In this document: piece after piece, positions 47,461 through 49,482 of the stretch
Position numbering within the stretch: the first letter of the stretch is position 1
How the letters are laid out: the number at the start of each line of letters is the position of its first letter
NCBI RefSeq assembly: GCF_003334255.1
Contig: NZ_QOWU01000007.1
Source: Escherichia coli
Lineage (GTDB): Bacteria; Pseudomonadota; Gammaproteobacteria; Enterobacterales; Enterobacteriaceae
Length of the DNA: 64,000 nucleotides
Direction: 5' to 3' (one strand)
Notes under the pieces: model-generated
The model's database searches: none
Told to the model about the DNA's origin: nothing
The model's input: only the letters and a program-made list of their open reading frames with translations
Position numbers and translations under genes: made by a program

Positions 47461-47486
47461 TAAAAATGGGGCCTTTCAGCCCCATC
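47461..47486 (-). terminator. hslVU operon rho-independent terminator
   Basis: Minus-strand hairpin tggggc-tgaaag-gcccca followed by TTTTTATT. Confidence 0.75.
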
Positions 47487-47514: not shown

Positions 47515-48846
47515 TTATAGGATAAAACGGCTCAGATCTTCATCTGCCACCAACGCATCCAGATGTTTGCTCACATAATCTGCGTCAATAGTGATATTTT
47601 GACCGCTTAAATCGCTGGCGTCGTAGGAAATCTCTTCCATTAAACGCTCCAGAACAGTGTGTAAACGACGAGCACCGATGTTTTCGGTAGATTCGTTCAC
47701 CTGCCATGCCGCTTCCGCGATGCGTTTAATACCGGAGTCGGTAAACTCGATATTTACGCCTTCAGTCGCCATCAGTGCTTTGTACTGCACGGTGATAGAG
47801 GCATTCGGCTCGGTCAGAATACGCTCGAAGTCGCTGGTGGTCAGCGCCTGCAGTTCAACGCGGATTGGCAGACGACCTTGCAGTTCCGGGATCAGGTCAG
47901 ACGGTTTCGCAATCTGGAACGCGCCAGAAGCGATAAACAGAATGTGGTCAGTTTTGACCATCCCGTGTTTGGTGGAAACGGTGCAACCTTCTACCAGCGG
48001 CAGCAGGTCACGCTGAACGCCTTCACGAGAAACATCCGGACCGGAAGACTCGCCGCGCTTACAGATTTTGTCGATCTCGTCGATAAACACGATCCCGTGC
48101 TGCTCAACAGCGTCGATAGCGTCTTGCTTCAGCTCTTCCGGGTTCACCAGTTTCGCCGCTTCTTCTTCAATCAGCAGCTTCATGGCGTCTTTGATTTTCA
48201 GCTTACGCGCTTTTTGCTTCTGGCCGCCCAGGTTCTGGAACATGGACTGCAGCTGGCTGGTCATCTCTTCCATGCCCGGAGGAGCCATAATTTCAACGCC
48301 CATCGGTGCTGCGGCAAGATCGATCTCGATTTCTTTGTCATCAAGCTGGCCTTCACGCAGTTTTTTGCGGAATGCCTGACGAGCAGCGGACGGTTCCTGC
48401 TGCTGTTCGGTCTGTCCCCAGTTGTTTTTAGCAGGTGGGATCAGCACGTCGAGAATACGTTCTTCTGCCAGTTCTTCAGCGCGATAACGGTTTTTCTCGA
48501 TAGCCTGGACGCGTACCATTTTCACGGCGGCATCGGTCAGATCGCGAATAATAGAATCCACTTCCTTACCGACGTAGCCCACTTCGGTGAATTTGGTCGC
48601 TTCAACTTTGATGAACGGCGCATTCGCCAGCTTAGCCAGACGACGGGCGATTTCAGTTTTACCGACACCGGTCGGGCCGATCATCAGGATATTTTTCGGG
48701 GTCACTTCATGGCGCAGCTCTTCGTTGAGCTGCATGCGACGCCAGCGGTTACGCAGAGCAATCGCCACAGAACGCTTGGCGTTGTCCTGGCCGATGATGT
48801 GCTTATCCAGTTCGCTGACGATTTCGCGTGGGGTCATTTCAGACAT
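47515..48846 (-). CDS. hslU: ATP-dependent protease ATPase subunit HslU
   Basis: 443-aa ORF with Walker A ([15 protein letters not shown]). Confidence 0.95.
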
Positions 48847-48855
48847 GGGAGATCC

Positions 48856-49386
48856 TTACGCTTTGTAGCTTAATTCTTCGATGGTGTGGAAATGGTTGGT
48901 ATAGATGCAAATGTCGCCTGCAATATCCAACGCCTTTTCAGCAATTTCACGGGCGCTAAGTTCAGTGTTTTCTAACAGCGCGCGCGCCGCAGCCTGGGCG
49001 TAAGGGCCGCCGGAGCCGATAGCAATAAGATCGTTTTCTGGCTGCACCACGTCACCGTTACCGGTGATGATAAGCGATGCAGTTTCATCCGCGACTGCCA
49101 GCAGTGCTTCAAGTTTGCGCAGCATGCGATCGGTACGCCAGTCTTTTGCCAGCTCAACGGCGGCTTTGACCAGATGGCCCTGATGCATTTCCAGTTTACG
49201 TTCAAACAGTTCGAACAGCGTAAAAGCATCCGCAGTACCGCCCGCAAAGCCCGCGATGACTTTGTCGTTGTACAGACGGCGGACCTTTTTCACGTTGCCT
49301 TTCATTACGGTATTGCCCAACGTGGCCTGACCATCACCAGCGATGACCACATGGCCGTTACGGCGTACGCTTACTATAGTTGTCAC
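48856..49386 (-). CDS. hslV: ATP-dependent protease subunit HslV
   Basis: (M)[37 protein letters not shown]; full match to recalled HslV. Confidence 0.95.
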
Positions 49387-49454
49387 GAGCTGACCCCTTG
49401 GTTACGAATACAGAGTACAAACCCCGTACAAAAGTACGGGGCATAATGCAATTA

Positions 49455-49482
49455 TAGATGGGGGGGATTTTGAGGGTTTCAA
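49455..49482 (-). promoter_or_regulatory. sigma-32 heat-shock promoter of hslVU
   Basis: Minus strand reads TTGAAA-N13-CCCCCCATCTATAA, matching the sigma-32 -35 CTTGAAA and -10 CCCCATNTA consensus; the -35 abuts the ftsN stop codon. Confidence 0.65.

Follow-up and report, generated by a model that had tools for sequence, protein, structure and literature searches.

Stem-loops of the ompA and papA type at the 5' end of messages, and the 5'-end-dependent action of RNase E, are established knowledge. The closest described system to the locus considered here is the hslVU (clpQY) operon of E. coli itself, in which clpQ::lacZ fusions are induced by heat in wild-type cells and lose this induction in rpoH mutants (Lien et al., 2009, PMC2681174). 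A C-to-T change in the -10 element CCCCATCT lowers expression 1.7-fold and abolishes induction both by heat and by RpoH (PMC2681174), and mutation of a candidate RpoS -10 element was reported to be without effect (Lien et al., 2009, PMC2681174, data not shown therein). Deletion of 40 bp of the leader lowers both beta-galactosidase activity and the mRNA level when expression is driven by the native promoter (Lien et al., 2009, PMC2681174), and in pBAD constructs the mRNA level drops when an inverted repeat in the leader is removed or when one of its arms is replaced by Ts (PMC2681174). Removal of the inverted repeat shortens the life of the mRNA after rifampicin, and an unrelated sequence with the same fold restores the mRNA under pBAD (PMC2681174).

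We analysed a 64-kb stretch of DNA (henceforth the window), in which the list of open reading frames (ORFs) places cytR, ftsN, hslV, hslU and menA on the minus strand at about 46.5-51.6 kb. A 301-nt query over the promoter and leader is 100% identical to E. coli and was found in 5426 of 5426 complete E. coli genomes; ftsN and hslV flank it in the RefSeq annotation of an identical E. coli record. Identical copies of a 93-nt promoter-leader stretch are present in 5033 of the 5426 genomes, and a repeated element was ruled out, the promoter-leader region being single-copy in E. coli genomes. The ftsN ORF (49479-50438, minus strand), taken from the ORF list and annotated as ftsN in the identical record, is followed on the same strand by the hslV (clpQ) coding sequence (48856-49386, with a GTG start at 49386) and the hslU (clpY) coding sequence (47515-48846), both supported by the ORF list and the RefSeq annotation. 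A Shine-Dalgarno AAGGGG (49394-49399, minus strand) lies 7 nt before the hslV GTG, in columns that are nearly invariant in our leader alignment. At the other end of the operon, the sequence contains an intrinsic terminator for hslVU consisting of a hairpin and UUUUU (47461-47485, minus strand), and the published transcript end at 4120362 corresponds to window position 47461.

The promoter is readily recognized on the minus strand. The -35 element TTGAAA (49477-49482), which came up in a pattern search and is named the RpoH -35 in PMC2681174, is separated by a 13-nt spacer (49464-49476), whose 3' end lies within a C run, from the -10 element CCCCATCTA (49455-49463), the site of the -10 mutant in PMC2681174. 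Searching both strands of the 64-kb window for TTGAAA-N12-15-CCCCAT returned a single match, against 0.02 expected from shuffles. We defined a sigma-32 promoter as TTGAAA followed at 13-15 nt by the -10 element CCCCATNT, and found CCCCATCT after a 13-nt spacer (14 in the convention of PMC10044804). A preliminary description of this DNA had proposed a sigma-32 promoter for hslVU at this position, and the pattern search, the published RpoH dependence and the defect of the -10 C-to-T mutant bear it out. The spacing given there, N13-CCCCCCAT, over-counts, since the C run comprises 7 Cs; N13-CCCCAT is right. We are highly confident in identifying the site as the heat-shock promoter from which RpoH (sigma-32) drives the hslVU (clpQY) operon, together with the 5' leader of that operon. 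RNA polymerase carrying sigma-32 would bind TTGAAA, with the ftsN stop codon inside it, and CCCCATCTA, and transcription would then begin at A49447.

No sigma-70-type promoter was found by a promoter scan of 48800-50600. A TATAAT hexamer overlaps the -10 element CCCCATCTA at 49451-49456 (minus strand), and we considered a sigma-70 promoter composed of TTGAAA and this perfect TATAAT (49456-49451). It was rejected, as the two elements are 20 nt apart and hence too far from each other.

The C7 homopolymer that runs from the end of the spacer into the start of the -10 element (49460-49466, minus strand) is a recurrent target in laboratory heat adaptation, yet it is nearly fixed in nature. Deletions of 1 bp and 2 bp in the C7 run became fixed in the heat-evolution experiments of two independent studies, with changed hslVU expression being selected (PMC7750951; PMC10044804). 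The 1-bp deletion arose in two populations, and the 2-bp deletion in strain BM28 (PMC7750951; PMC10044804). Among complete E. coli genomes (n=5426), the run is exactly C7 in 5033, C6 in 16 and C8 in 3, and some of the C6 and C8 variants may be homopolymer assembly errors. We also noted that a 2-bp deletion would bring TTGAAA and TATAAT to a spacer of 18 nt, which would make a near-consensus sigma-70 promoter (49451-49482). This predicted 18-nt spacer agrees with the sigma-32-to-sigma-70 shift proposed for BM28 (PMC10044804).

To place the transcription start, we used the SMRT-Cappable-seq data of Yan et al. (2018), which report a unit at NC_000913.3 4120362-4122348 on the reverse strand (b3932|b3931) in both growth conditions. 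An exact 61-nt match gave a K-12-to-window offset of 4072901, and with this offset applied to the SMRT-Cappable-seq coordinates, the start at 4122348 falls on an A at 49447 (minus strand). The hslVU mRNA thus has a 5' untranslated leader of 61 nt (49387-49447, minus strand) from the start site to the hslV GTG. A49447 lies 7 nt after CCCCATCTA, which fits the geometry of a sigma-32 promoter and agrees with the preliminary description, which had predicted a start 6-8 nt past the CCCCAT element. Lien et al. (2009, PMC2681174) placed the start 71 nt before the GTG, at window position 49457. This is the base right after CCCCAT, inside the -10 element, and is geometrically implausible. The two published hslVU starts therefore differ by 10 nt (49447 with a 61-nt leader, 49457 with a 71-nt leader), and we correct the length of the hslVU leader to 61 nt, not 71 nt. 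The supplementary tables of Kim 2012 and Ettwiller 2016 contain no hslV entry.

Within this leader, a 5' stem-loop, CCCCGUAC-UUUU-GUACGGGG, extends from +7 to +26 (49422-49441, minus strand) and is supported by folding (-16.5 kcal/mol), covariation, RNAalifold and the published mutants. It corresponds to a perfect 8-bp inverted repeat, CCCCGTAC/GTACGGGG, with arms at 49441-49434 and 49429-49422 and a TTTT loop, and can be extended to 9 bp by a G-U pair between 49442 and 49421, in which case it spans +6 to +27. It is the only inverted repeat found in 49300-49600, and it is dominant in the fold of the 65-nt leader (-21.8 kcal/mol, z = -2.97). The perfect 8-bp stem had been noticed in the preliminary description, with coordinates off by one (the hairpin occupies 49441-49422) and with a loop of aaaa, which is a plus-strand reading; the mRNA strand has UUUU. 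In Rfam, the family RF02401 (ClpQY_promoter) matches 49441-49384 on the minus strand with 63.6 bits, against a gathering threshold of 42. This match is full length (model positions 1-57), comprising the hairpin, then the Shine-Dalgarno sequence, and ending at the hslV GUG. Other Rfam families in the region gave sub-threshold noise only.

Two further features lie close to the hairpin. An AUG at 49444-49442 (+4 of the hslVU mRNA) opens a 28-codon ORF (49358-49444, minus strand) that is out of frame with hslV, and an AUG at +4 is also present in several Yersiniaceae and Pectobacteriaceae leaders. A conserved leader peptide starting from it was rejected, as the AUG is missing in the Citrobacter, Enterobacter and Kluyvera leaders. 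On the opposite strand, Term-seq (PMC7815308, supplementary file 1) recorded a 3' end at window position 49446 (plus strand) with 1381 reads, a low count, classed as 'antisense ftsN'. The palindromic hairpin finishes 5 nt before this 3' end, and the minus-strand start is 1 nt away from it; it could come from an antisense RNA trimmed to the hairpin or be an artefact of the library, given how abundant the 5' end of hslVU is.

What does the hairpin do? The preliminary description had suggested an effect on translation or on mRNA stability. Stability is upheld by the published deletion, disruption and restoration of the structure (PMC2681174), and translation is not, given that we found no conserved pairing to the Shine-Dalgarno sequence. 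Its prediction that hairpin mutations should alter expression also holds, since the published mutants do change expression (PMC2681174). The stability of the message depends on the structure of the hairpin, not on its sequence, and this has been published on a sequence identical to ours. In our proposed mechanism, residues from +6/+7 to +26/+27 of the transcript would fold into an 8-9 bp G+C-rich hairpin that would prolong the life of the hslVU mRNA and thereby raise HslV/HslU output; the hairpin would neither sense temperature nor occlude the ribosome-binding site. By analogy with the ompA and papA leaders, it probably presents an obstacle to 5'-end-dependent attack by RNase E. The promoter and the mRNA-stabilising leader hairpin of hslVU (clpQY) are real, functional and conserved, and they are also already known and ordinary.

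Conservation was assessed in 80 HslV-encoding loci, one genome per species, mostly from Enterobacterales with a few Vibrionaceae and Alteromonadaceae. A promoter of the TTGAA-N13/14-CCCCA type precedes hslV in 79 of the 80 genomes. The endosymbiont Candidatus Gullanella endobia (L076) has hslV without a recognisable sigma-32 promoter, leader hairpin or upstream match to the ftsN SPOR domain. With +1 in the relatives set by analogy with E. coli, the first leader hairpin of the 80 genomes starts at a median of +7, mostly at +6 to +9, and has a median energy of -16 kcal/mol. Stem length is 8-9 bp in Enterobacteriaceae, 14-20 bp in Serratia, Yersinia and Rahnella, and about 20 bp in Photorhabdus.

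We probed for selection on the structure in a covariation alignment of 47 distinct short leaders. Compensatory double changes occur in all stem pairs (9/9), and 93.3% of the cells are paired. In the controls, none of 500 shuffles reached any of these measures, and slid partners gave 37-52% pairing. RNAalifold on the same 47 leaders predicted the helix of the leader hairpin and no other. The stem alignment contains 20 G-U/U-G cells against 6 A-C/C-A cells, an excess that argues for selection on the hslV-sense RNA. The RF02401 model scored over threshold in 9 of 20 diverse loci; it misses the sampled Rahnella, Photorhabdus and Xenorhabdus loci, which have long stems, as well as several with short or moderate stems. 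Folding found hairpins at the same position in the loci that RF02401 missed. As the model passes only 9 of the 20 loci, we conclude that the structural element extends beyond the curated family. New here are figures for the conservation of the hairpin as a structure, at a constant spacing from the start, across Enterobacterales.

Several loci of this set depart from the common arrangement. In Pectobacterium zantedeschiae (L048, ~1320-1470), an insertion of about 120 nt separates the hairpin arms relative to P. betavasculorum (L043), and the leader measures 174 nt in the former and 52 nt in the latter; the insertion may be a small mobile element. In Vibrio sp. Hep-1b-8 (L079), the 7-nt unit CTCGCCT forms a long run of tandem repeats immediately upstream of the hslV promoter, before ~1430. 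A T5-T7 run follows the leader hairpin in Tatumella, Rosenbergiella and Pantoea (L040, L056, L057, L061, L065, L070 and L073, at ~1450-1485), so that the predicted hslVU transcript of these loci shows the canonical shape of an intrinsic terminator in its first ~35 nt.

The promoter overlaps the end of ftsN. The preliminary description had placed the -35 element against the ftsN stop codon; the contact is real, and the stop codon TGA (49481-49479, minus strand) lies inside the hexamer rather than beside it. Since TTGAAA always contains TGA, the informative test is whether ftsN uses this TGA in frame. It does so in 68 of the 78 loci having both features, mostly Enterobacterales. The exceptions are Vibrionaceae, Budvicia, two Pantoea and Aestuariibacter, where 21-400 nt separate the ftsN stop from the promoter, and several of these loci have a hairpin and T-run terminator in between. 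The stop codon within the -35 is a case of conserved genome compaction and is uninformative on transcription termination. The preliminary description had also held that termination of ftsN transcription shares base pairs with initiation at hslVU. This claim confused a stop codon with a terminator, as nothing terminator-like overlaps the -35, and it is further countered by the published ftsN-hslV-hslU read-through transcripts. That the ftsN stop codon is kept in frame within the -35 hexamer across genomes is part of what the analysis adds.

If the stop codon does not end ftsN transcripts, the hairpin downstream might. According to this proposal, the hairpin and its U-rich tail would have a second function for cytR/ftsN transcripts, either as an intrinsic terminator of the leaky kind or in blocking 3' exonucleases, a dual use that we consider possible and rather unlikely. 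Its logic is that fusion of the ftsN stop into the -35 leaves no terminator ahead of the promoter, so that a structure ending ftsN would have to lie inside the hslVU leader. Indeed, the sole candidate terminator is the leader hairpin, 38-57 nt downstream, within the hslVU leader. The possible weak terminator tail, UUUGUACUCUGUAUU (49407-49421, minus strand), has a score of 4.06; random 15-mers average 2.08, with their 99th percentile at 4.16, and the genuine hslU terminator reaches 3.63. However, the hairpin site was not called by a consensus terminator scan: the stem fits a terminator, the tail UUUGUACU is not reported by the scan, its score falls near the 99th percentile of random 15-mers, and close relatives do not conserve it. 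In Erwiniaceae and Pectobacteriaceae, runs of T5 to T7 after the hairpin give the canonical terminator shape, whereas most Enterobacteriaceae keep the hairpin with tails at random level (1.8-2.6), so that what is conserved is the stem, not a terminator. The Vibrionaceae speak for the proposal, as a separate hairpin and T-run of ftsN precede the promoter there and the hairpin of the leader is weak (-5 to -8 kcal/mol), but this contrast involves few genomes and is phylogenetically confounded.

Transcript data bear on the same proposal. In its favour, SMRT-Cappable-seq reports a cytR-ftsN unit separate from the ftsN-hslV-hslU read-through unit; the end coordinate of the cytR-ftsN unit is absent from the SMRT-Cappable-seq tables. 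By contrast, the Term-seq tables for three conditions (PMC7815308) contain no 3' end of ftsN or hslV on the sense strand, their sole entry here being the opposite-strand end at 49446; this is a weak negative, since the tables apply a threshold and ftsN expression is low. Moreover, when the leader or the hairpin is deleted, the native promoter yields less expression, not more (PMC2681174), implying that any termination is weak. Taken together, it is conceivable, at odds clearly below even, that the hairpin ends or protects ftsN mRNA on its 3' side and at once stabilises hslVU mRNA from the 5' side, with a U tract eroded in E. coli and intact in Erwiniaceae as a constitutive attenuator. An additional role of the leader hairpin for ftsN transcripts, at their 3' end, is a testable suggestion; otherwise, our analysis mainly confirms the known hslVU annotation.

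As hslVU is a heat-shock operon and RNA thermometers are known in other heat-shock genes, we also considered whether the hairpin, or the pyrimidine-rich stretch after it, masks the Shine-Dalgarno sequence at low temperature and frees it on heat shock. In the minimum free energy structure of the single sequence, a weak second helix does touch the GGGG of the Shine-Dalgarno sequence, but RNAalifold on the 47 leaders showed no conserved pairing to it. Across the 80 leaders, the Shine-Dalgarno core was predicted to be unpaired with a probability of 0.33 at both 30 C and 37 C and of 0.34 at 45 C, and accessibility was not lower than with shuffled linkers (0.30). The comparison of folding at low and high temperature, which the preliminary description had put forward as a check, therefore yields a flat profile of predicted Shine-Dalgarno accessibility from 30 to 45 C. 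The hairpin (-16.5 kcal/mol) lies about 25 nt from the Shine-Dalgarno sequence and is too stable to melt at 42 C, and Lien et al. (PMC2681174) state that there is no thermosensitive segment (data not shown). We rejected a thermometer of the ROSE or fourU type on the grounds of the missing conserved pairing, the flat accessibility between 30 and 45 C and the statement of Lien et al., and regard any such translational switch as highly improbable. That the palindrome acts on the promoter as DNA, be it as an operator bound by a dimeric regulator or as a cruciform, is more improbable still, and this reading was likewise rejected on the covariation and the G-U asymmetry: the perfect 8+8 palindrome, centred (49431/49432) 15-16 nt downstream of the start, is plausibly positioned for a repressor, but its arm sequences vary freely between genera with complementarity kept and stems of 8 to about 20 bp, which points to a structure and not a sequence-specific site, the excess of G-U over A-C cells (20 against 6) indicates selection on one RNA strand, and an unrelated stem sequence restores function under pBAD (PMC2681174).

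We therefore return to the promoter with its mRNA-stabilising hairpin and to how it compares with known systems. With respect to the sigma-32 promoter of E. coli hslVU/clpQY (Chuang et al., 1993, as cited in PMC2681174; Lien et al., 2009), the locus and the sequence are the same: the primers of Lien et al., TTGAAACCCTCAAAATCCCCC[C>T]CATCTATAATTGCATTATGCCCCGTA, equal the window sequence except for the engineered change, with no sequence difference. Likewise, the element of the window is the same as RF02401, a cis-regulatory 5' UTR stem-loop family based on Lien et al. (2009), and shows no differences from it. With intrinsic terminators, the hslVU hairpin shares a G+C-rich stem of 8-9 bp, a 4-nt loop and a moderately U-rich tail, and the orthologues of Erwinia, Pantoea and Tatumella have full T6-T7 tracts as intrinsic terminators do. 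Unlike intrinsic terminators, however, it follows a promoter and falls among the first 30 nt transcribed, the U tract is broken in E. coli (UUUGUACU) and Term-seq lists no sense-strand 3' end at it (PMC7815308). Like the ompA and papA stabilisers (Emory and Belasco; Bricker and Belasco, as they are cited in PMC2681174), the hslVU leader has a stable hairpin near the 5' end that stabilises the mRNA independently of sequence. The hslVU stem differs from these stabilisers in being preceded by 5-6 unpaired nucleotides, and since the pBAD constructs had extra 5' sequence, a strictly terminal position of the hairpin was not required for stabilisation in those assays.
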